DNA of 64,000 nucleotides from assembly GCA_964389325.1 (NCBI GenBank), contig CAYMEN010000005.1, forward strand, positions 31,672 through 95,671. The letters are read 5' to 3'. The notes under the pieces were generated by a model. The model was not told the origin of the DNA. It ran no database searches and was given only the letters and a program-made list of their open reading frames with translations. The translations under genes and the position numbers were made by a program. This stretch comes from an uncultured bacterium. Lineage in GTDB: Bacteria; Muiribacteriota; Ozemobacteria; Ozemobacterales; Ozemobacteraceae. Shown here piece by piece: positions 21,130-62,292 of this stretch; the stretch's first letter is position 1; the number at the start of each line of letters is the position of its first letter.

Positions 21130-21144
21130 TCCGGGAACTTCCTC

Positions 21145-23908: not shown

Positions 23909-24204
23909 GACGGCCTGCCGTCCTTCTCGGGATCGAACGGCTCTTCGCGGGCCGACTCGATGTTCCCGATCAACTGCAGCATGCGCGCCTCGGCAGCGTC
24001 GAGCACGTTTCCGCATCGGCGGCTCAGCCCGGTGCCGACTTCATACAGGCGCAGGCCGAGCTCGAGCGCGGTCCCCTCCTGTTCGAGGGCCTCGACGGTC
24101 TGCTCGAGACGCTCCATGGCGTCTTCATACGACAGTTTCTCGATCATCTCGGGAGTGAGAGCCGCGAGCTCCTCGAGTTCTTTCCGATCGAACACCTTTT
24201 TCAT
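23905..24204 (-). CDS. xseB: Exodeoxyribonuclease VII small subunit
   Basis: FEEAMERLEQTVEALEQEGTALELGLRLYEVG typical of XseB. Start at MKKVFD. Confidence 0.8.
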   Translation of the reverse strand: MKKVFDRKELEELAALTPEMIEKLSYEDAMERLEQTVEALEQEGTALELGLRLYEVGTGLSRRCGNVLDAAEARMLQLIGNIESAREEPFDPEKDGRPS

Positions 24205-28921: not shown

Positions 28922-30232
28922 ATGTTCGTCATTCCGATCCTGGCGATTGCGCTATTTCTCGCATCTCCGGAGCCTGCCGGCGCCCAACCGTTCGATCTGA
29001 TGATCCCTGACGAGCAGACGGGAGATTCGCTGACCACCGAACTCCGACGCCTCCAGAGCATCGAGCGTGATATCCAGCTCGAGCGCCTGACACAGCCCCC
29101 GCACAAGTTCGACGCTCTGGTCGAGATCGGGAACCTCCGGCTTGAGCAGGGCCGGCTCGAGGAGGCCCAGCGCTTCTTCGAGCAGGCGCTCGAGGTTCAG
29201 CCCGACAACATGCGGGCGAACGAGGGCCTCGCGGCGGTTTTTCTGCGGCAGGGAAGATTCAGCGACACGAAAGCGATCTACGACCGGCTGACGCTCCTGT
29301 ATCCGCTCAGCGACAAGCTTCGCGAGAACCTGGAACACGTCCGCTCACGCCTCAGCTCGGTCGCGGAGATCGGCGTCCGGCTCCACGAGGACAACGCCGG
29401 CCAGACCGAGTTCATCTCGAGTCTCGAGGCGTATTTCCCGTCCTTCACGTATCCGAAGCTGTCGGCCCGGTACCGGCTCGAAACCTGGGCCTACGAGGAC
29501 CGGAACCTCGACGAGACGACCGACAGCCGGATCCTGTCGGGAACCTTCGAATACAGCCTCGATCATCGCACGCGCATCGCCGCGACATTCGCCCCCGAGC
29601 GGTTTTCCGACGAAGACACGATCAACGGGTATTCGTTCCAGGGTGTGACGGGAAACGGCCAGCTCAATCTCGCTGCCTTCGCCGGCCATGGTTCCTACAA
29701 GGAAAATCTCGAGACGGCGCGCCGGCTGCTTTCCGAAGATTACGCGACACTGACCGTCTTTGGAGACCTGCACGAACAGACGCGCATCCAGCAGTCGTTC
29801 ACCACGGGCGACATCTCGGACGGCAACGCCCGGCGAAGGTTCGATACCGAGATCCTGCATTACATCAAGCGCCGCGGCATCCCGTTCCTGTCGCTCCAGC
29901 TCAAGCTTTCCCAGGCGAGCTTCGAGAACCAGCTCGATGCGGGCGGCGCGGCGTACACCTACTGGGCGCCCCGCGATTTTCGCGGCGCCGAGCTGGTCGC
30001 CGGCTGGGAGCGGGCCGTCGGCTCGAACTGGTGGTGGGGCTTCGACACCCGCCTCATCTCGAACTTCTGGCGCGACACGAGCCCGGAAACACGGCGGGAA
30101 AGCGGCCTGGGAGTGACCCTGCACGCCAGCTACCGGTTCGACACCGGCCGGCTGCATGCCGAGTTCGGCAACACCCTCCGCGACTTCACCCGGGAGCGCA
30201 TGCTGGGCGTGTACGGCAGCTTCGATTTCTGA
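28922..30232 (+). CDS. TPR-containing putative outer-membrane beta-barrel protein
   Basis: Signal peptide (MFVIPILAIALFLASPEPAGA). TPR-like segment (LEQGRLEEAQRFFEQALEVQPDNMRANEGLAAVFLRQGR). Alternating hydrophobic beta-strand pattern with C-terminal ..YGSFDF. Confidence 0.55.
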   Translation: MFVIPILAIALFLASPEPAGAQPFDLMIPDEQTGDSLTTELRRLQSIERDIQLERLTQPPHKFDALVEIGNLRLEQGRLEEAQRFFEQALEVQPDNMRANEGLAAVFLRQGRFSDTKAIYDRLTLLYPLSDKLRENLEHVRSRLSSVAEIGVRLHEDNAGQTEFISSLEAYFPSFTYPKLSARYRLETWAYEDRNLDETTDSRILSGTFEYSLDHRTRIAATFAPERFSDEDTINGYSFQGVTGNGQLNLAAFAGHGSYKENLETARRLLSEDYATLTVFGDLHEQTRIQQSFTTGDISDGNARRRFDTEILHYIKRRGIPFLSLQLKLSQASFENQLDAGGAAYTYWAPRDFRGAELVAGWERAVGSNWWWGFDTRLISNFWRDTSPETRRESGLGVTLHASYRFDTGRLHAEFGNTLRDFTRERMLGVYGSFDF

Positions 30233-30236
30233 CGCC

Positions 30237-30473
30237 CTACCAGATCAGCGCGGCAATCCAGCTGATCACGTATCCGCTGATGAACCCGTCGGCGAACGCC
30301 CACGCGGCGCCGTGGATGATGCCGCGCGGCGTCAGGTCGAAGCCCTCGTAGACGATCGCAACGACCAGCAGCCACGGGCTGGGCTCGCCGCTGGTGATCT
30401 CCGCGAGAGCCCAGACCGTCAGAACGGCGGCCCACGCCATCCCGACCAGGATGCCGATCTCGAACGGGGTCAC
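30237..30473 (-). CDS. Small integral membrane protein (78 aa)
   Basis: Two predicted TM helices. ORF tightly between flanking genes. Confidence 0.4.
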   Translation of the reverse strand: MTPFEIGILVGMAWAAVLTVWALAEITSGEPSPWLLVVAIVYEGFDLTPRGIIHGAAWAFADGFISGYVISWIAALIW

Positions 30474-30485
30474 GGTTCTCCTTGA

Positions 30486-31334
30486 TTATATATGTTCGAA
30501 TATAACCGATGCGTATCCGACACCGCGCGGGTGTGCCATGACGTCCATGGAGGTGGCGTAGGCCAGTTTCGTCGCGCGGACGCTCTTTCCCGCCAGCGAG
30601 GCGAGAAAGACGGTGATGGGGATGACGCCGCAGATGCTGCGGTCTTCCCCCACGACCAGCTCGTGAAAGGCCTTCGCGTCGAGCGACAGGATGACGTCGA
30701 GCGCCTCGCCGTCGATCCGGTAGGCTTCGTCGCGCGGCGTTTCATGGGAGAAGTCGGAACTGATGATGCAGACCGTGTCGGTGAACTCGGGTTTCGCGAG
30801 GACGCCGGCGATTGCCTTTCCCCACCGTTCGCACCGGGCATAATCGGCGAAACCGAGGGCGAGGGGTACGATCTTCGGCGGTGTCGCGTGCATGATCTGC
30901 TGGACGAACGGGATCTGGACCTCGATCGAATGTTCGAAGGCATGCGCCGAGTCGTCCCTCGCGAACAACCCCGTCTGCTCGAGAGCGGATCGCAGAGTCT
31001 CGTCGGTTTCGATGCTTCCGAGGGGCGTCATCCAGGTGTCTTCGGCGCTCAGCGCCGCCGAGGCGCCATACGGCGTGTGTTTCGGTCCGAGCATCAGGAG
31101 CCGCTTCGGCGCCGGCTTCTCATCGCCGAGCCGTCGGAACGACCAGCTTGCGACGGGGCCGCTGAACACATACCCGGCATGGGGCACGATCATGCCGGCC
31201 AGTCGCCCGGCCTGGGTGTGATGACGGTCCCGGACGCCAAGCCTGTGCTCGTAGCACTTCCTGATCATCTGGTACAGTTCGGTCGGTTCGTCGGGATAAA
31301 AGCGACCACTTACCGCAGGTTCTCTCACATGCAT
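30486..31334 (-). CDS. AmmeMemoRadiSam system protein B (MEMO1-like)
   Basis: VSGRFYPDEP..MIVPHAGYVFSGPVA..SSDFSHE..VGYASV motifs of the Memo/AmmeMemoRadiSam B family. Start at MHVREPAV. Confidence 0.8.
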   Translation of the reverse strand: MHVREPAVSGRFYPDEPTELYQMIRKCYEHRLGVRDRHHTQAGRLAGMIVPHAGYVFSGPVASWSFRRLGDEKPAPKRLLMLGPKHTPYGASAALSAEDTWMTPLGSIETDETLRSALEQTGLFARDDSAHAFEHSIEVQIPFVQQIMHATPPKIVPLALGFADYARCERWGKAIAGVLAKPEFTDTVCIISSDFSHETPRDEAYRIDGEALDVILSLDAKAFHELVVGEDRSICGVIPITVFLASLAGKSVRATKLAYATSMDVMAHPRGVGYASVIFEHI

Positions 31335-31415
31335 CCTCCTGAGAAAAAATCCTCTCCTCAATTCTACCACCATTTTCGGCCCTCATCGTTGTATAATCCC
31401 TTTGAGGACTCGATC

Positions 31416-32660
31416 ATGATACTGACAAGACACCTTCTTCGAACCATTTTTCTGGCGATCTTCGTGTTCGTGGCCGGCTCGGCCGTTTCGGCTTCCGATC
31501 GGCTGTCGATCGGTCTGGAAGTCCTTGCGACCGGCCACCCCGACCTCGTCGCCGGGAAAAAAATCGCCCTTCTCGTCGGTCTCGCCTCCTACGATCAGAG
31601 CATGCGCCACACGGTCGATCGGCTCGCCCGCGCAACCACGATCAAGTCCATCTTTTCCGGCGATCCGTGGCCCCGCAGGCTGATCGAGTCCGCCTCCGGA
31701 ACGATACAGATCGACGCTCTCACGCAAGCGCCCGTCCGCATCATCCGAGACCCCCTGGAAAAGCCCCGGCCGGAGCAGCTGAACGGCGCCGAATTAATAG
31801 TCATTGATATACAAGACATTGGCATCCGGTTTTTCCAGGCCGTGACTCTTCTCGCCCAGTTTCTCGAACTCGGCAAGCAGGCGGGAATTCCCGTCATCGT
31901 CCTCGACCGTCCGAATCCGATCGGCGCCTCGAAAATTTCGGGGCCGCTTCTCGACGTCCAGTATCGGAGCAGGTTCGGCGTGTATCCGATCCCCCTGGTC
32001 TACGGCATGACGTTCGGGGAGCTCGCTCTTTTCTTCAACAGGGTTTTCGGGCTGAATGCCGATCTCACGGTCGTCGGCATGGAAAACTACCGCCGGAACG
32101 ACACCTACCGGGCCATCGGGCTCCACTGGGCGCTGCCGTCGGAGCATCTTCCCGACCCCGAATCGCCGGTTTACTACGCGACGACGGGGTTTCTGGGCGA
32201 GATGGGCATTTTTTCGACCGGCGTCGGAACGACGCGGCCGTTCCACTATGTCCTCGCGCCCTGGATCGACCCCGATGCGCTGATTTCGAAACTCGCCGTG
32301 CAGAACCTGCCGGGCGTCGCCTTCCTTCCGACCGCGGCACGGCCATATTACGGGCTGTTCCAGCAAAAGCGGGTGCCCGGCATCGAGATCGTCGTGACGG
32401 ACCACCAGGTCTATGATCCCGTGATGACGGGCATTGCCATTCTTCACGCCCTCTGGGCCCTGTATCCCGATAACATTCCGCTCTCGAACCAGACGGCGGC
32501 GGAAGGCGTCGACATTCTGCTGGGCGGTTCCACCATACGGACGGCAATCATCCAGGGCAAAGGGATAGACGAGATCCGCGGCCTCGTCAAAGCGCCCCTC
32601 ACGGATTTCCTGGCGAAACGGAAGCAGTTTCTCATATATCCGGAGGGGCACAAGCCATGA
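31416..32660 (+). CDS. DUF1343-family protein (NamZ-like exo-beta-N-acetylmuramidase family), secreted
   Basis: Signal peptide, then GKKIALLVGLASYD..IVIDIQDIGIRFFQAVTLLAQFLE..IPVIVLDRPNPIG typical of DUF1343. Confidence 0.75.
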   Translation: MILTRHLLRTIFLAIFVFVAGSAVSASDRLSIGLEVLATGHPDLVAGKKIALLVGLASYDQSMRHTVDRLARATTIKSIFSGDPWPRRLIESASGTIQIDALTQAPVRIIRDPLEKPRPEQLNGAELIVIDIQDIGIRFFQAVTLLAQFLELGKQAGIPVIVLDRPNPIGASKISGPLLDVQYRSRFGVYPIPLVYGMTFGELALFFNRVFGLNADLTVVGMENYRRNDTYRAIGLHWALPSEHLPDPESPVYYATTGFLGEMGIFSTGVGTTRPFHYVLAPWIDPDALISKLAVQNLPGVAFLPTAARPYYGLFQQKRVPGIEIVVTDHQVYDPVMTGIAILHALWALYPDNIPLSNQTAAEGVDILLGGSTIRTAIIQGKGIDEIRGLVKAPLTDFLAKRKQFLIYPEGHKP

Positions 32661-33139
32661 GTGTTCCTGCCCGTTCCGTCCGGCCGGGGATGTCGATGGT
32701 CGAGATCATGATCGGCGTCATCATCCTGGCACTGGTTCTGATCCCCTCTTTGAACGTCATCATTTCCGAGACGAAAATCGTCAACGCCACGCGTGACCAT
32801 ACGCAGGCGTCGTTCTTCGCCCAGAAAATTCTCGAGTCGGCCCATGCCTGCAACTTCGATCTGCTCGATGCCAACCAGTATAAAGATGATCCCGCAACCC
32901 AGAAGACCACCTTCGAATATGCCCTGCAGAACAACGAAGACTTCCGCACGGAAACCATCAACGGGATCAAATACGAAGTTGTCAAAAAGGACGATGATCT
33001 CGTCAAGTATGCCGCCGACAAGAACGACCCGGATGTCAGGCCAAACATGGTCTTTCTCTCTTTCACCGTCAAATATATCGGTCAAGATAAGAATCCGCAC
33101 ACGCTCGATATCCATACGGCCATCAACAGGCGCCAGTAA
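32657..33139 (+). CDS. Prepilin-type N-terminal cleavage/methylation domain protein (pseudopilin-like)
   Basis: G-MSMVEIMIGVIILALVL class III signal motif. Start overlaps the NamZ-like stop (ATGA). Confidence 0.7.
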   Translation: MSVPARSVRPGMSMVEIMIGVIILALVLIPSLNVIISETKIVNATRDHTQASFFAQKILESAHACNFDLLDANQYKDDPATQKTTFEYALQNNEDFRTETINGIKYEVVKKDDDLVKYAADKNDPDVRPNMVFLSFTVKYIGQDKNPHTLDIHTAINRRQ

Positions 33140-33159
33140 TCCGAAAGGAAGGGTATTCC

Positions 33160-33804
33160 ATGAGACGTGAAGGTGTGACGCTCATCGAGGTCATGATGGC
33201 GGTCATCGTTCTCGCCCTGCTCCTGACGGCCCTCTATCATACGTTCTCCTCATCCCGCAGGCAGGCGCAGGTGGTCATGCAGGCACACCAGACGAACGAC
33301 GAACTGCAGCGGCTGTTCGACAAGATCACCGACGACATCCGCGAGTCGAACTTCGTTCTCGAAGGAACGCCCCCCAAGGCGAGCCTGGAGCAGTCGAAGA
33401 CGCTGAACTCCGGAGACCCCGCGAATTATATCTCGTTCCATAAAGTGACGTATGATTTTTCCCTTCAACCGAAAAGTCTCGGAGACAACCAGTACAACTA
33501 CACACAGTTGCGCGTCACCTACAAACTCGAGAAGGTCGATCCCGACCAGGCGACGGGCCCGTATATTCTCTGGCGTGAGACGCTGCCGTTCGATGACCGT
33601 CGTCAGGAAGTCACGGCCCAGCGCGCGCGCAAGGTCATGATGGAGAACATCGACGAACTTATTTTCTTCAGGCTCAATGAACCGAACCTGCCGCACCATG
33701 ACAGCGTCTGTATTCGTGCGAGGCTGACAGGCCGTGGCAAAGACAGCACATACGACTCGACGCTTCTGACATCGATCAGGCAAAGGGGGGCCGAACCGCA
33801 ATGA
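33160..33804 (+). CDS. Prepilin-type N-terminal domain protein (minor pseudopilin-like)
   Basis: G-VTLIEVMMAVIVLALLL motif. Confidence 0.7.
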   Translation: MRREGVTLIEVMMAVIVLALLLTALYHTFSSSRRQAQVVMQAHQTNDELQRLFDKITDDIRESNFVLEGTPPKASLEQSKTLNSGDPANYISFHKVTYDFSLQPKSLGDNQYNYTQLRVTYKLEKVDPDQATGPYILWRETLPFDDRRQEVTAQRARKVMMENIDELIFFRLNEPNLPHHDSVCIRARLTGRGKDSTYDSTLLTSIRQRGAEPQ

Positions 33805-36113
33805 ATACCTGTGGGCGCAAAGGATCGGCGATCATCATCTCCGTGGGGCTCGGCTTCGTTCTCCTGATCGTCATTGCCTCGCTCAGGTCGTTCACCTCGT
33901 ATCGCGTGCAGAACACGATCATGGAAAACAGGAACCTCAAGGCCCTCGCCCTGGCCGAAGCCGGGATTTCCTTTGCCATGACGGAGCTGAGCCTGAACAG
34001 CTCGTTCAGGACCCACAAGGTCAAGATCGATGCGGCGCAGAAAAAGCTCCTCTGGGATGAAACCAACCTCCCCACCTGGCAACCGTCCATTGCGAACGAC
34101 AGCGATTTCACCTTCGCCCAGCAGAACACCTCCGGGAAAGGGTCCTACCAGGGCACGCTCGGCGACGGGCAGTTCCGGTTCCGCGTCGGGCTGGTCGAGT
34201 ATGAGGACGACGACCGGACGAAGAACATCGACGAAAGCAAATGCTTTTTCAAGATCGATTCGATCGGCCGGGTCGGAGATACGATGCGCAGCATCTCGTG
34301 CGTGGCGCAGCGCCGGTTCCCGGGCCGCGAGTTCCTGATGTTCGACATGGAGTTTCTCTCGATCGTGTATGGGGAACCCGGCGAGAACAACGTGAACAAG
34401 TTCTCGACCGGCAATCTCTACGGACACCATGGCGTCGAGGTCGGTCAGATTCTTCTTGATGGTCACAGCCCGCTTTCCAACCCCGGAACGAAGCAGGAGC
34501 TCTTCGACATTCACAGCATCATCAGCGGAGCAGGCGGAATTTTCTTCTGGCAGCCGACGAAGGTCACGTTCCGGGCAAGGCCCGGCATGCCCGAAGAAAC
34601 GATCACGATGCCTCAAAGCAACATTCCGTTCCCTCAGCATGGGACGTATTCATCGGCTGAAGGGGAAAAATACGGTGAGGTGCCGGCAGAAATCCGTGGC
34701 AAAACGCCGGCGATTCCCGACACCCTGAAAGAGAAACTCAAGGGGCGTATTCTGGACAAAACCTCTCAGATCAGCCTTTCGCCCGGCGAGCCGCGGTTCG
34801 GCGACCTCAAGAAACAGGCCCAGAGCGGGGGGTATATTCCCGAGAACGACGGATCGAATCCCGCACTGGCATACAAGGTTACCAGCGGCTGGGCGCCTTC
34901 CAACGGAGGGTCGGTGGACGCGCGAGTCCTCGATTTCGGAACGGGGCTTCGCAAGGGCAACCTGACGCTCCCGGCGAATTTCAACGGTGTGATCTACTCC
35001 GACACGAATCTCGTCATCAAGGGAAACCCGCCCCGCGACGTCAAGATCGTCTCGAAGAAGAGCATCTTCGTCGCCGGCGATTTCAATCAGCGAAACAACA
35101 AGTCGAAGAAAGAGGAAAAATACAGTTTTCCCCAGGACTACGAGCAAAGCGCCCTTCTCAGCGACGACTACAAGGAGAAGTCCAGAACCCTGTTGTCGGA
35201 CGACCTGAAGGCAGGCGCCAACCCGGACGACACGGGCAACTACAAGCATCATTTCGCGGCGAACGTGATCGCGAACGAGCGCGTGGTCTACGATTACCGC
35301 AGCCCGGTGGACTGTTTCGAAAACGAAATGTACCCCATCATGAAGTTCGCCCTCGCGAAGGAGTTCATGTCCGAGGCCGACGCCGAGACGAGCATGCTCA
35401 CCCATGCCGGAGACGGGAAAATCACGGCCGACCTGAGCGACGAGGATGCCACGAAAAATAAAATAGCATCGTATTTTGAAAAATTTCCTCTCGCGGACGG
35501 AACCGACAAGTCAGCCCAGGAGGCGATCGCAGATGGCTTCGCGAAGAAGTACAACTCTGCCGACGGCATCAGCGAGGCCGACTTCGAGAAGTTCTGCAAC
35601 GAAGAGATCTGGCCCGCCCACAGGGCGGGGTATGAGGCGAATGTTCTGTCCGGGAACAACGGCGCGTATCAGCTGTTCAACAAGCTCCTCGAAAAGGTCG
35701 AGGGAAAGACCGACAAGGACAACGACTACCTGTATTTTCCCGAGATGACGACGAACGGCATTTTCCAGAGCTGCGGCGTCAGGTCCAACGTTTTCTATAT
35801 GGGTCCGGATTATAGCAAGCGATATGACGAGATCGGACGGTCGCCGTCCTGCCAGGCCGCGGGCGTGGGCCGCGCCTATTGCACGATGGAGCAGATGGTT
35901 CACCGGGTGTATGGCTCCGAGGTCCGGTATGCCACGAACAAGACGCTTCCCAGAATCACCGGCTCGTCCTACCGGCCGCCCACGCGCAGAAAGCTGTACG
36001 ATCCGACGCTTCCATCGCTCGACATCGGCGACGGCAGCGGCGACATGGCTGCGTTCGTGATCCTCACCTGGAAGGACCTGCGCGCCTCTTCCGACGAATT
36101 CACGAATTTCTGA
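33801..36113 (+). CDS. Large (770 aa) PilX/GspK-like N-terminal-domain protein, putative pilus/pseudopilus tip component
   Basis: N-terminal RKGSAIIISVGLGFVLLIVIAS resembles the PilX_N/GspK hydrophobic segment. Long Ser/Asn/Gly-rich beta-rich body. Overlaps the upstream gene by 4 nt. Hairpin downstream. Confidence 0.6.
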   Translation: MNTCGRKGSAIIISVGLGFVLLIVIASLRSFTSYRVQNTIMENRNLKALALAEAGISFAMTELSLNSSFRTHKVKIDAAQKKLLWDETNLPTWQPSIANDSDFTFAQQNTSGKGSYQGTLGDGQFRFRVGLVEYEDDDRTKNIDESKCFFKIDSIGRVGDTMRSISCVAQRRFPGREFLMFDMEFLSIVYGEPGENNVNKFSTGNLYGHHGVEVGQILLDGHSPLSNPGTKQELFDIHSIISGAGGIFFWQPTKVTFRARPGMPEETITMPQSNIPFPQHGTYSSAEGEKYGEVPAEIRGKTPAIPDTLKEKLKGRILDKTSQISLSPGEPRFGDLKKQAQSGGYIPENDGSNPALAYKVTSGWAPSNGGSVDARVLDFGTGLRKGNLTLPANFNGVIYSDTNLVIKGNPPRDVKIVSKKSIFVAGDFNQRNNKSKKEEKYSFPQDYEQSALLSDDYKEKSRTLLSDDLKAGANPDDTGNYKHHFAANVIANERVVYDYRSPVDCFENEMYPIMKFALAKEFMSEADAETSMLTHAGDGKITADLSDEDATKNKIASYFEKFPLADGTDKSAQEAIADGFAKKYNSADGISEADFEKFCNEEIWPAHRAGYEANVLSGNNGAYQLFNKLLEKVEGKTDKDNDYLYFPEMTTNGIFQSCGVRSNVFYMGPDYSKRYDEIGRSPSCQAAGVGRAYCTMEQMVHRVYGSEVRYATNKTLPRITGSSYRPPTRRKLYDPTLPSLDIGDGSGDMAAFVILTWKDLRASSDEFTNF

Positions 36114-36143
36114 GGCACCGGATTTTCCCTCCCGTACATGGCA

Positions 36144-36170
36144 AACCGGATGGATCCCTTCCATCCGGTT
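36144..36170 (+). terminator. Hairpin after the large PilX-like gene (possible terminator; no T-tract)
   Basis: AACCGGATGG-atccctt-CCATCCGGTT perfect 10-bp stem. Confidence 0.35.
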
Positions 36171-36686
36171 GCGCAGGATATCCTGACTTGTGCCGTTCAG
36201 ACGAAGTTCAGGACACCATTTCCCCGCGGAGCGCCTCTTAGCGTCCCCGCACCCAGGGGCCATTCGTGCGGCACGGAACGTGAGCGTTCGTCGTTTCCCA
36301 CAACGGCGTTTCGGCCACCCGGGATTTTGCGATCATCCGTGTTCGCACCATATGCCTGCCTCCTTGTTTTCGGGCCGGGAGGGGGGTTATCCCCAACTCC
36401 TTATCTCTACAAATTACATCGTCAGAACCCCCACCCGACTTTCGTCAGATAATTTCAAGTTTTTCTATTAAAGCGGCCCCTTTTCGCAGCTGTTCTTTTG
36501 TTTTCTATCATAGATAGCTGAAATGAATTTTTTTTCTGATCAAAGACAGGGTTGAACAGCCGCCACCGGGCGGGGTTGAGCGGTTCGCGAACCGCCCCCA
36601 CGGTTTGTCGGGCGATACAGAAACGCGTTTTCGATCCTGAAAAACAGGGTCGCGCTTCCTCTGTGGTCCGTATTATCATCCGATTC

Positions 36687-38243
36687 ATGGACACCAACCA
36701 TACGGGCTTGCCGTCTTTCCTGCGGGAGGCCGTTTCGCACAGGGCTGGCCGGCTTGCATTCCTGGCCATCTGGCTTCTGCTTCACATCTTTTTTCGGACG
36801 TCCTTCTTCAATGATTGCGGCACGTATTCCCACACGATGTACGGGAACGTCATGCTTCACTCGGGAAGCCTGATCAGGACCGACCCGTTCACCTGTTCCC
36901 GGTTCGGCCACCCCTGGATCGCCCAGCAGTGGCTGAGCGAAGTCGGAATGGCGCTTCTGAGCATGATCGGCGGGTTCGACACGCTGCTTCTGGCCGCCAC
37001 GCTTCTGGCCGCCCTCACCTTCACGGGGGTCTGGGTCAGGCTGTACAACTCTGGAATGCACCCACTGATCTCGGTTCTCATCATGGCCATGGTGTTTTCG
37101 GCCGCCTCGATGCAGTTTCTCATCCGGCCGCTTCTCATCACGATGGCCGCGCTTGCGCTTCTCTTCTCGATGCTCGTCGATATAGAAGCAGGCCGGCGCC
37201 CGGTCAGCCATCTCCTGCTTCTGCTCCCCATCTTCTGGGTCTGGTCCAACAGCCACGGCGGGTATCTTGCGGGCATCGGAACGTTCGGTTTGGCTGTTGC
37301 CGGCTGGACCGCCCTGCGCCTGGCGAACGCTCCCACGCCGCTTTCATCGCCCCGCAGGGTGTTCATCGCCTGGATTTCCCTCTTCTTTGCCGGGGCCATG
37401 TCGTTTCTCGGCCCATACGGCACCGAGCTTCCGAAGACGTGGGCCACCATCATGGACTCTTCGGAAGTCAGAACCCTGATCATCGAACATTTGCCTCTCT
37501 ATGCTTCTCCTGAAGGGGCCGTCCCGATACTCCTGTTTTTGGGATATATCGCGTTTCTGGTGAAGTTTGCCGAGCGCCCCGTGCGAATCACCTGGCTCAT
37601 CCCCGTCGTCTGGTTTCTCCTTTCCTGGAGCCGCGTGCGGAATACGCCGCTGTTCGCGATCACGGCCGCCATCGCTTTTGCCGAGATGTATGCCCGTTCT
37701 TCCCGGCTGAAGATCGTTGCGCAGACGAAGCCGCTCTATGGCCTTGCGAACGACCGCCCCCCCGCGAGACTTCCGATCAGAACGGCGACCGTTCTTCTCC
37801 TTGCCGGACTCTGGCTTCAAACGAGCGGCTCGGTGATGCCGCTGTTCGGAACCGGCTGGGCAAAGCCCGATCATGCGCGCTGGCCGTTCGAGCTGGTCCC
37901 GGCCATCCGTGAATACGCCGAACGGAAGACGCCGAACAAAGCAGTGTTCACCGAGTTCAACCTCGGCTCCTGGGCCGTCGGCGTCGATCCGCGGCTGCGC
38001 GTCACGATCGACGATCGGTGCGAGCTGTTCGGCGACCGACTCATGCGGGAACACTACGAATCGGCTTCTGACACGCAGCTGATCGCCTCATGGGTGAAGG
38101 CGTTCTCCACGAACGCCGCCCTCACCTCACCCAACTCCGCGTTCGATCGCTGGTTCCGCGCCGCGCCGGGATGGCGCGTCGTGGCGACGGCACCGGCGGG
38201 AGTCTGGCACGAGCTCGACACGGGCGGGACGACTGAGCCGTAA
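36687..38243 (+). CDS. Polytopic membrane protein (>=10 TM), possibly glycosyltransferase-like; function unknown
   Basis: Many hydrophobic helices. Start (ATG 36687) uncertain. Preceded by a 570-bp intergenic region. Confidence 0.5.
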   Translation: MDTNHTGLPSFLREAVSHRAGRLAFLAIWLLLHIFFRTSFFNDCGTYSHTMYGNVMLHSGSLIRTDPFTCSRFGHPWIAQQWLSEVGMALLSMIGGFDTLLLAATLLAALTFTGVWVRLYNSGMHPLISVLIMAMVFSAASMQFLIRPLLITMAALALLFSMLVDIEAGRRPVSHLLLLLPIFWVWSNSHGGYLAGIGTFGLAVAGWTALRLANAPTPLSSPRRVFIAWISLFFAGAMSFLGPYGTELPKTWATIMDSSEVRTLIIEHLPLYASPEGAVPILLFLGYIAFLVKFAERPVRITWLIPVVWFLLSWSRVRNTPLFAITAAIAFAEMYARSSRLKIVAQTKPLYGLANDRPPARLPIRTATVLLLAGLWLQTSGSVMPLFGTGWAKPDHARWPFELVPAIREYAERKTPNKAVFTEFNLGSWAVGVDPRLRVTIDDRCELFGDRLMREHYESASDTQLIASWVKAFSTNAALTSPNSAFDRWFRAAPGWRVVATAPAGVWHELDTGGTTEP

Positions 38244-38306
38244 GCCGCTCAAACCGGCTTGCGGACGGCCTCTGGCCGTGATACCATTAAAACACGGACA
38301 CACCAT

Positions 38307-38498
38307 ATGCAGGAAGAACGTTGCCCGCTCTGCTTGCGGATCAAACAGTATGACATATCCAACAAGACGTATTACCGCTTCCAGAACACCGAACGTCTGG
38401 TGTGCGAGCCATGTGCGAAGGAAGTCGAGAACCGTCTCCGCCCGACGTGGCAGATCGTCGCGGGCAGGGTATTTCCCCGGAGCACGAAGCATGACTGA
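38307..38498 (+). CDS. Small zinc-ribbon protein (63 aa)
   Basis: CPLC..(24 aa)..CEPC four-Cys pattern. 9 nt upstream of cheR. Confidence 0.45.
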   Translation: MQEERCPLCLRIKQYDISNKTYYRFQNTERLVCEPCAKEVENRLRPTWQIVAGRVFPRSTKHD

Positions 38499-38507
38499 GC
38501 GGCGCCG

Positions 38508-39563
38508 ATGAGCCGCTCGTTCACTCCCAACGAGTATGCCCAGCTGCGCGATTTCCTTTCGCGCGAGTTTGGCCTCTTCTTCGACACGAACAAGGTCACA
38601 TATCTCGAAAACCGCGTTCTCCCCCTCATCGAGAAATACCGGTGCCCCGACATGAACGGGCTGATTTCCGTCATCCAGTCGGATCAGGCACGGAGAATCG
38701 AGCTGCTGGACATCATCACGACGAACGAGACCTGGTTTTTCAGACATCCCCGGCATTTCGACATCCTCCGGGACGAGGTGCTCACTCCCCTGGTTCGTTC
38801 CCGCGACCAGGAAGGCCAACGCAGGCTTTCGATCTGGTCCGCCGGCTGTTCGATCGGTGCCGAGGCATTTTCTCTAGCAATAACGATTCTCGAAACGCTC
38901 CGCGACCCGGCCCGCTGGAAAATCACCATCATCGGCAGCGACATCTCCACGTCTGCCCTCGAACGCGCCCGCGCGGGCGTTTACACCTCGACCGAACTGA
39001 AGCTGCTCTCGAACATGCTGCTCACCCGGTATTTCGTGCCGACCGGTTCCGGCGAGTTCCGCGTCAAACCCGAACTCGCCGCGATGGTCCGGTATGAACA
39101 CCTCAACCTGCTCGACATCTGGCCCGATCGGAAATTCGACGTCATCTTCTGCCGGAACACGATGATCTATTTCAAGGAAGCGACCAAGGCTGCCCTGACC
39201 GAACGGATCTACAAAGCCCTCGAGCCGGGCGGCATGTTCTTCACGAGCGCGACAGAAATCCTCCACTGGAAGGGTGACGACGAGTTCGAGAAGCTGTTTC
39301 TTCACGGCGAATACGTCTATCACAAGCGGCCGGCGACGAAGACCTACATCCTCTACCGTTTTCAGACCCCCTCCGACCTGCTGCGGGCGCTCAACCTTCT
39401 CGTCAAGTTCAACCACGAGTATCAGTTGATGAACATCCCGCAGGCATCCCCGTCTTCCCCCCGAAAGGCGCTCTTCGTCCCCAAGCGTCTGCAACCGACG
39501 ATCGACAGGCTGTTCGACGAGGCGCACCTGCGCAACGTCGGCTCCGAGGAGTTTCGAAAATAG
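38508..39563 (+). CDS. cheR: CheR-type protein-glutamate O-methyltransferase
   Basis: CheR N-terminal domain and SAM-binding motifs (RIWSAGCSIGAEAFSLAI, FDVIFCRNTMIYF). Confidence 0.8.
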   Translation: MSRSFTPNEYAQLRDFLSREFGLFFDTNKVTYLENRVLPLIEKYRCPDMNGLISVIQSDQARRIELLDIITTNETWFFRHPRHFDILRDEVLTPLVRSRDQEGQRRLSIWSAGCSIGAEAFSLAITILETLRDPARWKITIIGSDISTSALERARAGVYTSTELKLLSNMLLTRYFVPTGSGEFRVKPELAAMVRYEHLNLLDIWPDRKFDVIFCRNTMIYFKEATKAALTERIYKALEPGGMFFTSATEILHWKGDDEFEKLFLHGEYVYHKRPATKTYILYRFQTPSDLLRALNLLVKFNHEYQLMNIPQASPSSPRKALFVPKRLQPTIDRLFDEAHLRNVGSEEFRK

Positions 39564-39611
39564 GACTGCACACCTTCCCCCAGCCTGCCGATAACAGGAA
39601 GGGGGGAACAT

Positions 39612-40070
39612 ATGCTCGATTCGTCCGCACCTGTCGTCCGCGTCCGCGTGACCGTCGCCCTGCGCCATCCTGACGGACGCCTCTGTTTCGTCCGCCATCT
39701 CAAGAACGGCCGCCGCTACTGGCTGCTCCCGGGAGGCGGACAGGACGCATTCGAACCCCTCGAGGAAACGGCCCGCCGCGAGCTGCGGGAAGAGCTCCGC
39801 ATCACCGTTTCCGGGCTGACGTTTCTCGGTCTTCGCGAGTCGATGAGCCGCGAAGCCGGCCGGCACATCCAGTTCCCCATCTTCGAGGCCGTGAACCCCG
39901 ATCTTTCGACGCTTGGAACCGGGGACGACCCCCGTGTCGAAGGCGTCGATTTCTTCACGGCCGATGAACTGGCCGGCCGCCCGATCTTCCCGAACATGGG
40001 CGATGACATCCTGAAAATCGCCCGAGGCGAGCGTATCGAACCGTTCCGAACCCTGGAATGGGTCCCCTGA
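39612..40070 (+). CDS. NUDIX hydrolase
   Basis: Nudix box GGGQDAFEPLEETARRELREELRI. Confidence 0.8.
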   Translation: MLDSSAPVVRVRVTVALRHPDGRLCFVRHLKNGRRYWLLPGGGQDAFEPLEETARRELREELRITVSGLTFLGLRESMSREAGRHIQFPIFEAVNPDLSTLGTGDDPRVEGVDFFTADELAGRPIFPNMGDDILKIARGERIEPFRTLEWVP

Positions 40071-40089
40071 CAATACCCTGGAGGCGCGT

Positions 40090-42660
40090 ATGATCGACAA
40101 AAAATACGATCAGATCATCAACGACTGCAAGAAGCGCATCGCGGCCAATCCCCGCGACTTTTTCGCGTATTACCAGCTCGCGCGGGCGGTCGAGATGACC
40201 GGTGAGACCGACACGTCGATCGGTATTTATCGCGAGGCCCTCGCGATCAATCCCAAGGATGCGTACGCGCACAACTTCCTCGGGCTCGCGTTCAAGAACA
40301 AGGGCATGCTCAACGAGGCCATCACCGAGTTCAAAAAGGCGATCATGTTCAACACGAACTACGCCTTCCCCTACTCGAATCTCGGCATCATCTACAAGCA
40401 GAAGGGCATGTACGACGAGGCGATCATCCGCTTCAAGAAGGCGATCTCGCTCAAGCCCGACTTCGCATTCGCGCACCTGCAGCTCGGCCTCATCTACAAG
40501 CTCAAGAAGCTGTATGACGAGGCGATCATCCGGTTCCGCAACGCCATCGACCTGAACCACGATTACGCTTACGCCCATTTCGCGCTCGGCTCGACCTATC
40601 TCGAGATCGGAAGGCCGCGCAAAGCCATCGTCGAATTCAAGAAGGCGATCATCCTCAATCCGCAGGATTCGCATGCCCTGAGCCAACTCGGCCGGGCCAT
40701 GATCTCGATGAAGCAGTATGATGAAGCCGTCACGATCCTGCGAAACTCGATCGAGCTGAACCCGGACAACGCGTTCACGTTCCTGAACGTCGGTCTCGCC
40801 CACTTTCACGCCGGCCGCAATGACGAGGCGATCGAGGCATTGAAGCGGGTTCTCGACATCAGCCCCGACATGACCGAAGCGCGCGTGCTGCTCGGCCAGT
40901 CGTTCTTCCGGAAATCGATGGATGATGCCGCCCTGCAGGAGTTCCGGAGGGCTCTCAAGACGGACCCGAAGTATCCGCGGCTCCATTTCCACATTGGAAC
41001 CGTTCTGCGGAAAAAGACGGAGACTCAGAAGGCGATCGACGAGTTCAAGCTGGAAAACGGCCTGAACCCGAATGACGCCGAGCTGCATTTCAATCTCGGC
41101 CTCGCCTACAAGGACCGCGGCATGCTCGACGAGGCCGTCGGCGAGCTGAAGCGGGCGCTGTATCTCGACGCGGGCCTGTCGCGCTGTCACGACATGCTCG
41201 GCGAGATCTACGACGTGAAGGGCCAGAACGACCAGGCCGTCACGCACTGGCGCAAGGCCGCGGAGCTCCGCAAGAAGGGCGAGGCCCGCGACATGGCCGA
41301 AAAAGTCGCCCCCCCGGTGCGGACGCGTTCGGAGATGGACCTCATGATCGAGCGGTACCGCGTCGAGGTCGCCGCCCACCCCGACAACGCGGAAGCTCAC
41401 TACAAGCTCGCCTCGGCGTACAAGAACAAGGAAATGTATGACGAAGCGATCATCGAGTTTCGCAAGGTCCTCGTCCTGAACCCCTACGATTCGTTCGCGC
41501 ATTATAATCTTGAAGTTATATATCGTTTGAAAGGCATCGACGACCAGAACCTCGTCCGGTGGAAGCGGTCGGTCGCGATCAATCCCGAGAACGCCGGCGC
41601 CCATTACCGGCTCGGCCTCGCCTACAAGGAAAAAGGCATGCTCGACGAGGCGATCCGCGAGTGGGAAAAGGCGGTCGCGCTTGACCCCGACTTCTCGCAC
41701 GCCCATCTGCAGCTCGGCATCGCCTACAAGAGCACGGGCCATTCCGACGAGGCGCTGAAGGCCTGGAACCGCACGATCGAGATCGATCCCGAGTTCCAGG
41801 AAGCGTTCATGCACCTGGGGAAAGCCTACCTGAACCAGGGAATGCTCGACGAGGCCGTCGCTGCGATCAAGAAGACGATCCGGCTGAAGCCCGACGACGT
41901 CGAGTGCCGGTTCGTCCTCGGGCTGATCTACAAGAACAACGGGATGCTCGAGCAGGCCCGAGACACCTTCGAAACCCTGCTTTCCGTGAAAGAAGACCAT
42001 GTGGCCGGGCTGGTGAACCTGGGAGCCGTCTACAAGAACCTGAACCAGCTCGAAAACGCCCTCAGTTGCCTGATGATGGCGATCCGGCTCGACGAACGGC
42101 AGTTCTTCGCCCATTATCTGCTCGGAACCGTGTATCGGGCGCTGGGCAGCTTCGAACAGGCCGAGGAATCGTTCAAGAAGTCGATCACGCTGAACCCGGA
42201 CGACGCCTTCTCGCAGTACAGCCTCGGCGTGATCTACAAAAATTCGGGTCGCCTTCCGCTCGCGATCAAGGCGTTTTCCAAGGCGATCGAGCTCGATTCC
42301 GACGACGGGTATTCGTATTCCCATCTCGCGCTGTCGCTGTACGAGCAGGGGCAGCTGCACGACGCCATCAATGCGTTCCGGCGCTCGGTCGAAATCAATC
42401 CCGAAGACACCTACGCGCTGTACAACCTCGGCATGGTGCTGATGGACAATCACGATACCGACTCGGCAATCGAGGTTCTGGTGAAGGCCGTCAACCTCGC
42501 GCCGGAAGACCCATATGCCTGCTTCAACCTCGGTCAGGCCTATGAAGAGAAGCGTCTGATGCCCGAAGCGAAGGCATGCTACCAACGCGCCGGCCAGCAT
42601 GCGCCCAAGAACAGCCAGATTTCGCGGTTCGTCCAGGAAGCGATGGCCCGACTGAAATAA
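40090..42660 (+). CDS. Giant TPR-repeat protein (856 aa, >20 TPR units)
   Basis: Regular 34-aa repeats (AxxxLGxxYxxxGxxDEAIxxFKKAIxLNP). Confidence 0.8.
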   Translation: MIDKKYDQIINDCKKRIAANPRDFFAYYQLARAVEMTGETDTSIGIYREALAINPKDAYAHNFLGLAFKNKGMLNEAITEFKKAIMFNTNYAFPYSNLGIIYKQKGMYDEAIIRFKKAISLKPDFAFAHLQLGLIYKLKKLYDEAIIRFRNAIDLNHDYAYAHFALGSTYLEIGRPRKAIVEFKKAIILNPQDSHALSQLGRAMISMKQYDEAVTILRNSIELNPDNAFTFLNVGLAHFHAGRNDEAIEALKRVLDISPDMTEARVLLGQSFFRKSMDDAALQEFRRALKTDPKYPRLHFHIGTVLRKKTETQKAIDEFKLENGLNPNDAELHFNLGLAYKDRGMLDEAVGELKRALYLDAGLSRCHDMLGEIYDVKGQNDQAVTHWRKAAELRKKGEARDMAEKVAPPVRTRSEMDLMIERYRVEVAAHPDNAEAHYKLASAYKNKEMYDEAIIEFRKVLVLNPYDSFAHYNLEVIYRLKGIDDQNLVRWKRSVAINPENAGAHYRLGLAYKEKGMLDEAIREWEKAVALDPDFSHAHLQLGIAYKSTGHSDEALKAWNRTIEIDPEFQEAFMHLGKAYLNQGMLDEAVAAIKKTIRLKPDDVECRFVLGLIYKNNGMLEQARDTFETLLSVKEDHVAGLVNLGAVYKNLNQLENALSCLMMAIRLDERQFFAHYLLGTVYRALGSFEQAEESFKKSITLNPDDAFSQYSLGVIYKNSGRLPLAIKAFSKAIELDSDDGYSYSHLALSLYEQGQLHDAINAFRRSVEINPEDTYALYNLGMVLMDNHDTDSAIEVLVKAVNLAPEDPYACFNLGQAYEEKRLMPEAKACYQRAGQHAPKNSQISRFVQEAMARLK

Positions 42661-42676
42661 CGCCGGAGAAGACTCG

Positions 42677-44665
42677 ATGCGCTCACTCCTACGCAACAAC
42701 GCCATGGCAGCTGTACTCTTCTGCCTCGGCGCGCTCGCGGCGCTGATCGGATGCGAGGCGGACAACAGCGTCACGCCGCGCGAAGGCGAGCTCCAGGGAA
42801 CCGTGTATTCGAAGAGCGGCACGGTCCTGAGCAACGTGCTCGTGAGCTGGACATACGATCCGACCCGCTGGGGACGGAGCGGGGACGACGGGGTGTTTCA
42901 CATCGCCGGCATCGGCTTCGGCGAGCAGGAGTTCGTCGCGACGAGATCCGGTTACCGCGCAACAACGTTCCGCGCGGCCGTCTATTCCAATGCCGTTTCC
43001 GTGATCTCGAACGTCACCATGGAAACCTCCTCGTTCGATTACCAGGACATCACGGTCGCGGAATACTCCTCCACCCACGCGGTGATCACCTGGAAGACGA
43101 CCGATTACACGAACGGCCTCGTCGAATACGGCACCACCGACAGCTTCGGAAGCTACGTCAACGAGCCCTCCGGCCAGTATGCGACGACCCACAGCGTAAC
43201 AATTTCGGGCCTCAAGCCCGATCAGCAGTATTATTTCAGGATCGTGGCTTCCCGCCAGGGCCGCGAATCCGAGACATCGCCGAGCGGCACCTTCTCGACG
43301 CTGGCGCCGCTCGACGACTCGACCGTGCCCGCCCCGCCGTCGGGGACATCGATCGCGGTCGACGGAACCCCGAACCAGGTCGTCGTTTTCTGGGCGCCGA
43401 ATGTGGAGAATGACCTGAAAGGATACCGGATCTACCGTTCCGAGCTTCCCTCGAGCGGGTACGACATGGTTTCCGACACGCTGATCGCGAAGGGCCAGGA
43501 ACGGTACACGGACACGTTGGTCAGGACCGGCATGAAATACTATTACCGCGTTTCGGCCGTCGACCAGGCGGGCAACGAGAGCGGGCCGTCCGAGATCGTG
43601 TCGATGCTGGTTCCCGGCGAAATCACCGGCACCGTCACCTGGACGCTCGCCAACAGTCCGTTCGTCGTTCCGGGCGATATTACAGTGACAGATATAGGAA
43701 CTTTGAAGATCGACCCCGGCGTCGTCGTGAAGATGTCCGATTCCGACGTTCTGAGAGCGAACGATACGGCGAAGGTCGAGATCCTCGTCACCGGCGGCGT
43801 TCTGATCGCCAGCACGAGTTCCGACCAGCCCATCATTTTCACATCCGAGCGGCCTACACCTTCTGCGGGAGACTGGGGCGGAATAAGCATTTCCGACTCG
43901 GCAGACACCACGACGGCTCTTTGCGGCGTCACGATCGCGTATGCAGCCACGGGGCTGAAACTGGAAAAAGCCGCGGGGCATTTCCAGAAAATGATCCTGG
44001 ATCATTGTTCTGTCGGCGCCCGGATCGTCTCATGCACCGATCTGACCGTCGATGCGTCGAGGGTTTTATTCACACCGGACGGAGTGAAAGCCACGGGAAA
44101 CACCCGGCTTTCGATAACGAACAGTACATTTTCACACGGCGTCACCGGGATCGATGCGAGCGGGAACGACGCCTCGAGCTACTCCGGCAACAACTTCTTC
44201 GATCTTTCCGGCTTCGGACTGTCCTGTGCCGACACGGCGGGCTCGATCAGCATCACGAACAACCTGTTCGTCGCGAAGACGGGCCTGGGCCTGCGAATTT
44301 CCGACCAGCCGCCGACCGTTGATTACAATACGTTTGACGCGGCATACGGCATCCAGGTCGTCAGCGGCGTTCCGACGATCCGAAAAAACATTCTCGTCGC
44401 GGGCACAAGTTTCACGGGCCAGGGCTTCAAGGGAATCGAGAATCTCGGGGGCCAGAGCACGCCACCGGTTTTCGGGCCGAACAGCGTCTACGGATTTCCG
44501 GCCGGGAAAGACTATGTCGATTGCGCGTCGGCATCGGGAAGCCTCGCCTCGTCACCGCTTTTCGTCAGAGACTTCACGGGCGACACGTATGATTACCGCC
44601 TCCAGCAGGCTTTTCCGAGCACTGGCGACCAGTGGGGCATCCAGCGCTCCGACATGCCGGAGTGA
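42677..44665 (+). CDS. Lipoprotein with carboxypeptidase-regulatory-like, fibronectin-III-like and right-handed parallel beta-helix domains
   Basis: Lipobox LIGC. FN3-like segments (YYFRIVA, YYYRVSAVDQAGNES). Beta-helix-type repeats in the C-terminal half. Confidence 0.65.
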   Translation: MRSLLRNNAMAAVLFCLGALAALIGCEADNSVTPREGELQGTVYSKSGTVLSNVLVSWTYDPTRWGRSGDDGVFHIAGIGFGEQEFVATRSGYRATTFRAAVYSNAVSVISNVTMETSSFDYQDITVAEYSSTHAVITWKTTDYTNGLVEYGTTDSFGSYVNEPSGQYATTHSVTISGLKPDQQYYFRIVASRQGRESETSPSGTFSTLAPLDDSTVPAPPSGTSIAVDGTPNQVVVFWAPNVENDLKGYRIYRSELPSSGYDMVSDTLIAKGQERYTDTLVRTGMKYYYRVSAVDQAGNESGPSEIVSMLVPGEITGTVTWTLANSPFVVPGDITVTDIGTLKIDPGVVVKMSDSDVLRANDTAKVEILVTGGVLIASTSSDQPIIFTSERPTPSAGDWGGISISDSADTTTALCGVTIAYAATGLKLEKAAGHFQKMILDHCSVGARIVSCTDLTVDASRVLFTPDGVKATGNTRLSITNSTFSHGVTGIDASGNDASSYSGNNFFDLSGFGLSCADTAGSISITNNLFVAKTGLGLRISDQPPTVDYNTFDAAYGIQVVSGVPTIRKNILVAGTSFTGQGFKGIENLGGQSTPPVFGPNSVYGFPAGKDYVDCASASGSLASSPLFVRDFTGDTYDYRLQQAFPSTGDQWGIQRSDMPE

Positions 44666-44953: not shown

Positions 44954-44969
44954 TGGCATGCGGATTGCA
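44954..44969 (+). promoter_or_regulatory. Sigma54 (-24/-12) type promoter TGGCAT-N5-TTGCA upstream of flp
   Basis: GG and GC elements with canonical spacing, 48 nt upstream of ATG 45018. Confidence 0.55.
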
Positions 44970-45017
44970 CTGACTCAAAGTGGCACACAGCCAAAAAATT
45001 CTTGCAGGAGGAACCAT

Positions 45018-45188
45018 ATGAACCTGATTCAGCGCTTTGTGAGAGAAGAAGAAGGCCAGGGTCTTGTCGAGTACGCCCTCATCATCGGCCTCATCGCCGT
45101 TCTCGCCATCGTGGCTCTCACCTTCGCCGGCGGCAAGGTCAGCGGCATGCTCGGCTACATCGGCGACCAGATGGTCACCGGTTCGTAA
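45018..45188 (+). CDS. flp: Flp/Fap-family type IVb (Tad) pilin
   Basis: GQGLVEYALIIGLIAVLAIVALTF is the Flp motif (G^xxxxEY). AGGAGG RBS. Sigma54-type promoter upstream. Terminator downstream. Confidence 0.8.
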   Translation: MNLIQRFVREEEGQGLVEYALIIGLIAVLAIVALTFAGGKVSGMLGYIGDQMVTGS

Positions 45189-47232: not shown

Positions 47233-47254
47233 GTTTAACAGGGGGGGGATTTAT

Positions 47255-62291: not shown

Positions 62292-62292
62292 C

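Follow-up and report, generated by a model that had tools for sequence, protein, structure and literature searches.

A Riflebacteria-specific operon joining a NamZ-family gene to three minor pilins

The recognition of substrates by type II secretion systems and by secreting type IV pili is poorly understood, and the best-understood cases are those in which a tip minor pilin binds an exoprotein encoded in the same operon. In the TcpF-TcpB pair of Vibrio cholerae and the CofJ-CofB pair of enterotoxigenic Escherichia coli, the operon-encoded exoprotein is exported by binding to the minor pilin at the tip (PMC10120004; PMC6048534; PMC9565799). The minor pilins of the GspI-GspJ-GspK and PilV-PilW-PilX sets are encoded by three consecutive co-translated genes of rising size, of which the first two products carry a class III signal and a glutamate at position 5 (Glu5), while the last and largest keeps the glycine at position -1 (G-1), lacks Glu5 and begins with a long N-terminal helix. 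The terminal PilX subunit without Glu5 caps the filament (bioRxiv 10.64898/2026.02.12.705559). Here we describe a Riflebacteria-specific operon of four same-strand open reading frames at positions 31416-36113 (+) of a 64,000-nt stretch of DNA (hereafter the window) from Candidatus Riflebacteria (Ozemobacteraceae). The operon consists of a NamZ-family gene followed by the genes of three minor pilins, which probably cap a type IV filament and of which the last is a giant of 770 amino acids.

Described relatives exist for the enzyme and for the giant, in both cases in a different setting. NamZ of Bacillus subtilis (YbbC) has Glu92 as its putative catalytic carboxylate, and the canonical gene has murQ-murR-murP-amiE-nagZ as its partners (PMC8054146), whereas the partner in Riflebacteria is a pilin trio. 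In ComZ of Thermus, a beta-solenoid is inserted into a GspK-like pilin domain; the protein binds DNA and has been argued to sit at the pilus tip with PilA2 (PMC6561018). Cyanobacterial beta-solenoid PilX proteins share the ComZ-like architecture, have been proposed as tip plugs and have roles in motility and adhesion (bioRxiv 10.64898/2026.02.12.705559). The systems of ComZ and PilX/HpsA are without a NamZ gene, and it is for them that links to DNA binding or exopolysaccharide have been described. Riemerella anatipestifer requires both a DUF1343 protein and a CarboxypepD_reg-domain protein to undergo natural transformation, by a mechanism that has not been explained (PMC8459023).

Organization and conservation of the operon

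All four open reading frames named in the preliminary description of this DNA are present, and the coupling of a NamZ-family gene to a pseudopilin-like trio was borne out. The first gene (DUF1343/GH171-like; 31416-32660, +) encodes 414 amino acids with a Sec signal peptide. It is followed by minor pilin 1, in the PilV/GspI position (32657-33139, +; 160 amino acids), by minor pilin 2, in the PilW/GspJ position (33160-33804, +; 214 amino acids), and by the giant terminal, cap-type pilin-like protein (33801-36113, +; 770 amino acids). The coupling by ATGA overlaps that had been attributed to the genes holds at two junctions, where the NamZ stop meets the pilin-1 start (32657-32660) and the pilin-2 stop meets the giant start (33801-33804). 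It does not extend to a third, as the junction between pilin-1 and pilin-2 is a 20-nt spacer with the ribosome-binding site GGAAGG and without overlap. A hairpin with a perfect 11-bp stem and a 5-nt loop (36144-36170, +) lies 31 nt past the stop codon of the giant. This inverted repeat (I2) folds as RNA at -26.9 kcal/mol (z = -4.5 against shuffles) and has no U-tract, and it is the probable 3' end or stabilizer of the operon transcript. An Rfam search over 30000-39000 gave zero matches, and a scan for promoter and terminator consensus sequences gave nothing above shuffles and no internal signal in the operon.

A genome scan returned 77 loci, and the proteins of the window were mapped by tblastn; L numbers below denote individual loci. 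After removal of duplicates 39 orthologous loci are informative, and 7 more end at contig edges. The order NamZ-pilin-pilin-giant is intact in 39/39 of the informative loci, across giant identities of 37-90%, and the gap between the NamZ gene and the first pilin gene is -14 to +5 nt in most loci and 11 to 216 nt in a few. It had been allowed beforehand that the adjacency of NamZ might not be conserved, which is false for this set, and that the trio might belong to a conserved core locus, which is true at the level of the phylum. The four-gene block persists despite changed flanks. The Memo gene is not upstream in approximately nine loci and CheR is not downstream in approximately six; in L002 flagellar genes lie upstream of the intact block, and in L003 its upstream neighbors are an SH3 protein and an ATPase-platform pair.

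The pilin-type trio and the NamZ-family protein

As judged from sequence, the trio follows the priming or tip-complex logic of GspI-GspJ-GspK and PilV-PilW-PilX. Its members are of 160, 214 and 770 amino acids, and the succession of Glu5, Glu5 and no Glu5 holds in all orthologues. It shares with these sets the three consecutive co-translated genes of rising size, the class III signals of the first two products and the G-1 and long helix of the last, in addition to weak hidden Markov model (HMM) matches of pilin-1 to PilV and GspI and of pilin-2 to GspJ. The riflebacterial scores, unlike those of the known sets, are all under the curated cut-offs, and a GspH/FimU-type fourth gene is not part of the operon, to which an enzyme gene is joined instead. 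Because no HMM of these families matched above its curated threshold, we treat the trio as working like the GspI-GspJ-GspK and PilV-PilW-PilX sets and not as a member of them.

The class III motifs given for both small pilins in the preliminary description can be read directly as G↓MSMVEIM in pilin-1 and G↓VTLIEVM in pilin-2, where the arrow marks the putative processing site. Pilin-1 reads RPG↓MSMVEIMIGV, and this motif, with G or A before the site, is conserved in 25/25 aligned orthologues with an invariant E16. Its Pfam N_methyl score is 16.6 bits, below the cut-off of 21.2. The match of pilin-1 to the PilV model TIGR02523 (1.2e-7; 32.2 bits, cut-off 52.2) is sub-threshold and extends past the helix, and the GspI model TIGR01707 gave 13.4 bits against a cut-off of 44.35. 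Pilin-2 reads MRREG↓VTLIEVMMAV, scores 24.0 bits for N_methyl, above the same cut-off of 21.2, and matches the GspJ model TIGR01711 over its N-terminus only (2.2e-5; 24.4 bits, cut-off 64.85). Its G↓xTLIE motif is conserved phylum-wide among the orthologues. Profile searches of pilin-1, pilin-2 and the giant against PDB sequences found generic N-terminal pilin helices only.

The giant reads GRKG↓SAIIISVGLGFVLLIVIA, with G-1 (G8), a hydrophobic helix and no Glu5. Its orthologues share (K/R)G↓SAIIT, with I or T at +5 in all and G8 conserved in at least 90%. It belongs to no Pfam or NCBIfam family, and a Pfam scan of 38 giants gave no consistent family. An AlphaFold2 model built with 38 homologues has a mean predicted local distance difference test score (pLDDT) of 88.4 and a predicted template-modelling score of 0.87. 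In this model, the protein is predicted to have a pilin-like head at approximately 9-172, made of a 57-residue N-terminal helix and a beta-sheet (73-172), followed by beta-solenoid-like runs of short strands at approximately 178-428, a helical domain at approximately 459-633 and C-terminal strands at 648-761. The sole significant Foldseek matches of the model in PDB are three chains of Thermus ComZ (6QVI). The best has an E-value of 7.5e-6 and a probability of 0.75, but the template-modelling (TM) score is only 0.11-0.15 and the identity 8%. The G-1, the missing Glu5, the long helix on a beta-sheet and the ComZ match agree with the earlier placement of this 770-amino-acid protein as the terminal subunit, in the GspK/PilX position. 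A pilin-like head, a large beta-solenoid and a proposed function as tip plug are features of ComZ and of the cyanobacterial beta-solenoid PilX/HpsA proteins that the giant would share. It differs from ComZ in the low identity already given, in an added helical domain of approximately 175 residues (459-633) and in forming a small family of its own. GspK is much smaller than 770 amino acids. The proteobacterial PilX is also smaller than the giant (bioRxiv 10.64898/2026.02.12.705559).

Homologues of the giant fall into 79 clusters of approximately 750-830 amino acids, none with a Pfam domain, and their named sources are Candidatus Riflebacteria or Ozemobacteraceae, apart from two with another or a generic label. 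When 1.84 billion representative proteins were searched exhaustively by HMM, only 147 matched the giant, 58 of them below 1e-30. Among the weak HMM relatives of approximately 400 amino acids, those that match the N-terminus of the giant have sub-threshold PilX_N scores (24.1 bits at best, cut-off 25.5), and those that match its residues 320-430 carry bactofilin/FapA-type beta-solenoid signatures.

The NamZ-family protein contains both domains of its family at full length (Pfam NamZ_N, PF07075, 1.1e-46 and 159.3 bits against a cut-off of 26.9; NamZ_C, PF20732, 5.9e-34 and 118.5 bits against a cut-off of 25). Its PDB homologue is 4k05 (4.8e-53), and direct reading of its N-terminus gives the Sec-type signal MILTRHLLRTIFLAIFVFVAGSAVSA↓SD. 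The two full-length domains and the export signal are shared with NamZ of B. subtilis and with NamZ1/2 of Tannerella forsythia, as is Arg96, and the putative catalytic carboxylate of beta-strand 2 is an aspartate. Identity to the NamZ of the window is 47% or more among the riflebacterial proteins, whereas it reaches at most 39% in those from outside the group (KSB1, Nitrospirae, Bacillus atrophaeus), with B. atrophaeus NamZ at 37%.

For comparison of the active sites, the canonical proteins were represented by seven non-riflebacterial sequences (Bacillus, KSB1, Nitrospirae, Limnochordales). Bacillus Glu92, the putative catalytic residue at the tip of beta-strand 2, aligns to D83 of the window protein, and at the equivalent position all 37 riflebacterial sequences have D or E, often the shorter Asp. 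Bacillus Arg96 corresponds to R87, which is invariant across the riflebacterial proteins. The residues N62, T64, H93 and G94, invariant in 7/7 canonical sequences, are replaced in every riflebacterial NamZ. The canonical active-site motifs (I/L)TNPTG and GPEHGxRG, with their NPTG and PEHG residues, are thus not kept anywhere in the clade, and R96 alone is retained from them. By these alignments, the pilin-linked NamZ proteins are a clade of their own in which the active site has been remodelled. They may well still be hydrolases, and their specificity may have changed. The nearest non-riflebacterial NamZ genes (KSB1, Nitrospirae) do not adjoin pilin genes, and the Nitrospirae copy is followed by an Amidase_3 gene. 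In the window, a GH3 protein (NagZ-like; Pfam 9.8e-84) is encoded at 57337-58926, outside the operon and approximately 21 kb downstream of it, and this protein could act together with a NamZ-type enzyme on peptidoglycan fragments.

Possible roles of the linked enzyme

The reading that we prefer is that the NamZ-like enzyme is a dedicated partner or cargo of the tip complex that the trio would form on a type IV filament, and we consider it about evenly poised between right and wrong. It is preferred mainly because a second cassette repeats the combination of a secreted enzyme-like protein with a trio of its own. This paralogous cassette is defined by the weaker matches of the scan (22-29% identity) in approximately 25 riflebacterial loci, which lie within L055-L083 (for example L057:6790-18245 in the complete genome OZ223236.1). 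It opens with a secreted protein of approximately 291 amino acids and a Sec-signal protein of approximately 327 amino acids from the TGase_elicitor family (PF16683), the latter 62-84% identical among loci. The trio follows, made up of a pilin-1-like protein, a pilin-2-like protein with N_methyl and a giant paralogue of 740-830 amino acids that starts RGQALIVIL...AEAGL, and a CarboxypepD_reg/fn3 protein of 2000-2700 amino acids often comes next. The window carries the NamZ cassette only. Some loci of the second cassette continue with a pair that resembles a sensor kinase and a response regulator, as judged from N-terminal sequences and two predicted transmembrane segments only. Homology of the membrane proteins downstream of the giants between the two cassettes was also considered, and phmmer ruled it out, the proteins being unrelated.

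Under the preferred reading, a prepilin peptidase would cleave all three pilin-type proteins, which would then come together in the inner membrane by way of their N-terminal helices. The trio would nucleate a filament whose GspG-like major subunit is polymerized by an ATPase of the PilB type and a platform encoded elsewhere, and would remain at the filament tip with the giant as its cap. The Sec-exported NamZ-family protein, a putative glycosidase whose production would be coupled to that of the trio in a fixed stoichiometry, might be carried along or pushed out as the filament grows, or might act at the tip on a bound MurNAc-type (N-acetylmuramic acid) glycan. The TcpF-TcpB and CofJ-CofB systems serve as a model for such a coupling of enzyme and trio, and also for a pair of cassettes that each have a cargo of their own, in functional analogy only. 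Like them, the operon would combine a Sec-exported protein with a dependence of its export or function on a tip minor pilin. They differ from it in being type IVb systems, which have only one minor pilin, a trimeric one, and whose cargo bears a disordered export signal at its N-terminus.

Several observations count against this role of the enzyme or against the tip complex on which it depends. Synteny in the phylum also extends to much of the wider neighborhood, and shared ancestry therefore accounts for part of the signal of NamZ-pilin adjacency. A closer paralogue of the trio (33% identity; L005/L049, from the same metagenome-assembled genome as L008) occurs without NamZ or any other enzyme gene, and the trio does not, therefore, strictly need NamZ. 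A TcpF-like disordered export segment was looked for on the enzyme and none was seen, as mature NamZ begins directly with its catalytic domain (residue 29 corresponds to residue 12 of 4k05). Between the NamZ gene and the hairpin there is no fourth pilin of the GspH/FimU type, the other pilins being 17 kb away, and no prepilin peptidase (PilD/GspO), secretin or platform is found among the window genes scanned. The N_methyl model for pilin-1 and the GspI, GspJ and PilV models fall short of their curated thresholds, and PilX_N (PF14341) was found in 1/38 giants, at an E-value of 0.14. Finally, the structure model of pilin-2, built from 8 close homologues, has a pLDDT of 40 and is unusable.

The synteny of the neighborhood and the trio without NamZ (L005/L049) are also what would be expected if an ordinary set of minor pilins merely stood beside a housekeeping exo-muramidase of peptidoglycan recycling, with linkage by descent only. 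We judge this explanation unlikely. It would accommodate the wide synteny of the Memo, CheR and NUDIX genes, the 856-amino-acid TPR gene and the gene of the beta-helix protein, the full length of the NamZ domains with their retained carboxylate and Arg, and the presence of the GH3 (NagZ-like) gene at 57337-58926. However, it does not predict that the four-gene block alone would never break as its flanks change, with stop/start coupling kept in most of the 39 loci, nor that the clade would lose the four residues common to all seven canonical NamZ sequences aligned. Canonical NamZ genes elsewhere stand beside amidase or recycling genes and not pilins, and the second cassette repeats the layout of a secreted enzyme followed by a trio. 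If linkage by descent were nonetheless the whole explanation, the finding would shrink to a conserved but ordinary minor-pilin operon of an uncultured phylum.

It is possible, and in our view distinctly unlikely, that the NamZ-like enzyme trims the producer's own peptidoglycan locally so that the bulky tip (approximately 85 kDa) and the filament can cross the sacculus. Dedicated wall hydrolases serve flagella, type III and type IV secretion and some type IV pili, and a Sec-exported enzyme that is co-translated with tip proteins, one of them very large, would suit such a role. The NamZ family acts on peptidoglycan glycans (PMC8054146), and the DUF1343 gene is indispensable when R. anatipestifer undergoes natural transformation, which depends on transport through the wall (PMC8459023). 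However, the characterized NamZ is exo-acting on the non-reducing MurNAc ends of peptide-free glycans (PMC8054146), which would make it a poor opener of pores. Trios also occur without a hydrolase, both in L005 and in Muiribacteriota. The most distant of these, the Muiribacteriota trio at L059:3458-12313 (approximately 25% identity), stands after a VWA protein, a T2SSG-like pilin of 323 amino acids and two TPR proteins, and it has no enzyme gene there and housekeeping genes downstream. An opening of the producer's own wall, and with it the cell-wall remodelling for pseudopilus assembly put forward in the preliminary description, becomes less likely because the second enzyme-like protein, in the equivalent position of its cassette, is a transglutaminase-elicitor-like protein and not a wall hydrolase.

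The least probable alternative is a competence pilus in which the giant would be a ComZ-like DNA receptor at the tip and the NamZ-like protein an accessory factor: the DNA-binding tip pilin ComZ is the sole significant structural match, and the DUF1343 and CarboxypepD_reg proteins required for Riemerella transformation have counterparts in the NamZ gene and in the conserved CarboxypepD_reg protein at 42677-44665, but the ComZ match is weak by TM score, the two lysines implicated in DNA binding by ComZ could not be mapped onto the giant, no comEA, comEC or dprA is present among the window genes scanned, beta-solenoid PilX proteins serve motility and adhesion too, and the CarboxypepD_reg domain is so common that the coincidence is weak. 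The link of the Riemerella DUF1343 protein to DNA uptake is taken here as a lead only.

Surrounding genes and biological meaning

The absence of an adjacent ATPase or platform, as first described, is true of the immediate neighbors of the operon, but a PilB-like ATPase and a GspG-like pair of genes occur elsewhere in the window. The pair comprises a prepilin gene (52622-53125, +; 167 amino acids, Pfam N_methyl) and a GspG-like pseudopilin gene (53122-53562, +; 146 amino acids, N_methyl, T2SSG 3.1e-5, and a sub-threshold match to the GspG model TIGR01710 at 3.1e-12). If the two products indeed serve the same machine as the trio, they are candidates for shaft or adaptor subunits of its filament. 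A PilB/GspE-type ATPase is represented by an N-terminus of 235 amino acids cut by the end of the window (63294-63998, +). This fragment matches MshEN (1.4e-18) and T2SSE (1e-11) in Pfam, has a cyclic di-GMP-binding motif of the MshE-type domain (1.7e-18) and fits PilB (TIGR02538, 1.4e-45) better than GspE (5.6e-28). It is 76% identical to the ATPase of L003, which lies 5 kb upstream of NamZ beside a T2SSF platform, and it is a candidate motor for the filament of the trio. No GspD secretin, GspC/L/M or GspE of a type II secretion system was found in the window. The region 61951-63998 holds a TPR protein followed by the PilB-like ATPase, and the same set of TPR, ATPase and platform genes is found 5 kb upstream of NamZ in L003, L004 and L040, from which it appears that rearrangement has changed the position of one region relative to the other.

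The immediate neighbors of the operon are a divergent Memo-like gene, a polytopic membrane protein, CheR, NUDIX, the 856-amino-acid TPR protein and the beta-helix protein. The membrane protein (36552-38243, with a probable true start near 36687; 563 amino acids) has at least six hydrophobic segments and no family match. It was considered as a part of the core unit and ruled out, as it directly follows the giant only in the closest relatives. In L003 the giant is followed by two tandem polytopic membrane proteins of 500 amino acids that are unrelated to it. The downstream block at 38508-44665 (CheR, NUDIX, the TPR protein and a CarboxypepD_reg/fn3/beta-helix protein of 662 amino acids at 42677-44665) is conserved in most orthologous loci. 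Within it the TPR protein is far more constrained than its neighbors, with 57-89% identity where the giant has only 37-48%.

Two small pilins of the Flp/Fap type are encoded farther downstream at 44958-45188 (Pfam Flp_Fap 2.5e-7) and 47228-47464 (by reading only), on either side of a DUF362 gene, and point to a separate Tad-type pilus. In L001 and L003, too, the beta-helix protein is followed by a Flp gene. Elsewhere in the window, a polyhydroxyalkanoate cluster at 6214-11746 (a PhaR-like regulator, two PhaC-like alpha/beta hydrolases and a PhaE-like fragment) is followed by a FadL/TodX outer-membrane channel at 11359-13341, which is consistent with a diderm envelope. A run of isoprenoid genes of the methylerythritol phosphate pathway at 19421-24016 (-), with IspF-, Dxr-, GHMP-kinase- and IspD-like genes and a polyprenyl synthetase, then exonuclease VII and biotin carboxylase, is partly syntenic in L001.

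A profile of base composition was run on the pilin-type genes, which had been described as lying in AT-richer DNA. This is numerically true, with GC contents of 0.52, 0.57 and 0.58 for the three genes against 0.61 for the NamZ gene and for the window, but the difference is small and is not a sign of foreign DNA. The GC content at third codon positions (GC3) is 0.72-0.79 in the pilin-type genes against 0.77-0.86 in neighboring genes, and the drop arises mainly at codon positions 1 and 2, in proteins that are rich in K, N, I, Y and F and poor in G, A, R and P. Horizontal transfer is thus ruled out as the cause by the near-normal GC3, by the deficit at codon positions 1 and 2 and by the phylum-wide conservation. 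As the deficit lies in these positions and the genes are vertically conserved across the phylum, the AT-richness is an effect of amino-acid composition.

Tip complexes of minor pilins and beta-solenoid cap pilins were already known. What is new in this operon is the obligate linkage of a NamZ-family protein with a minor-pilin trio, a NamZ clade with a remodelled site, a family of 770-amino-acid caps without a Pfam or NCBIfam model, and two paralogous cassettes of enzyme plus trio in Riflebacteria. In a full-text literature search, DUF1343 was found together with pilin in the Riemerella paper only (PMC8459023). The operon is the first genomic link between the NamZ family and type IV filaments that we found, and it fits the unexplained requirement for the DUF1343 protein in Riemerella.

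A broader proposal, which we offer tentatively and hold to be doubtful, is that in Riflebacteria one type IV filament motor is served by interchangeable, cargo-dedicated tip sets, each made up of a Sec-exported enzyme and its own I-J-K-like trio with a giant beta-solenoid pilin as the cap. If this is true, the tip of the filament would display or release one particular enzyme, either the NamZ-like glycosidase or the transglutaminase-elicitor-like protein, and the NamZ cassette would supply an enzyme directed at peptidoglycan glycans for use on other cells, on necromass or in the passage of DNA through the wall. It would also represent a new principle of substrate specification in the superfamily of type II secretion systems and type IV pili. 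A phylum with two exported enzyme-like proteins, each tied to a separate tip set of three pilins, would offer a natural experiment in how these machines recognize their substrates.

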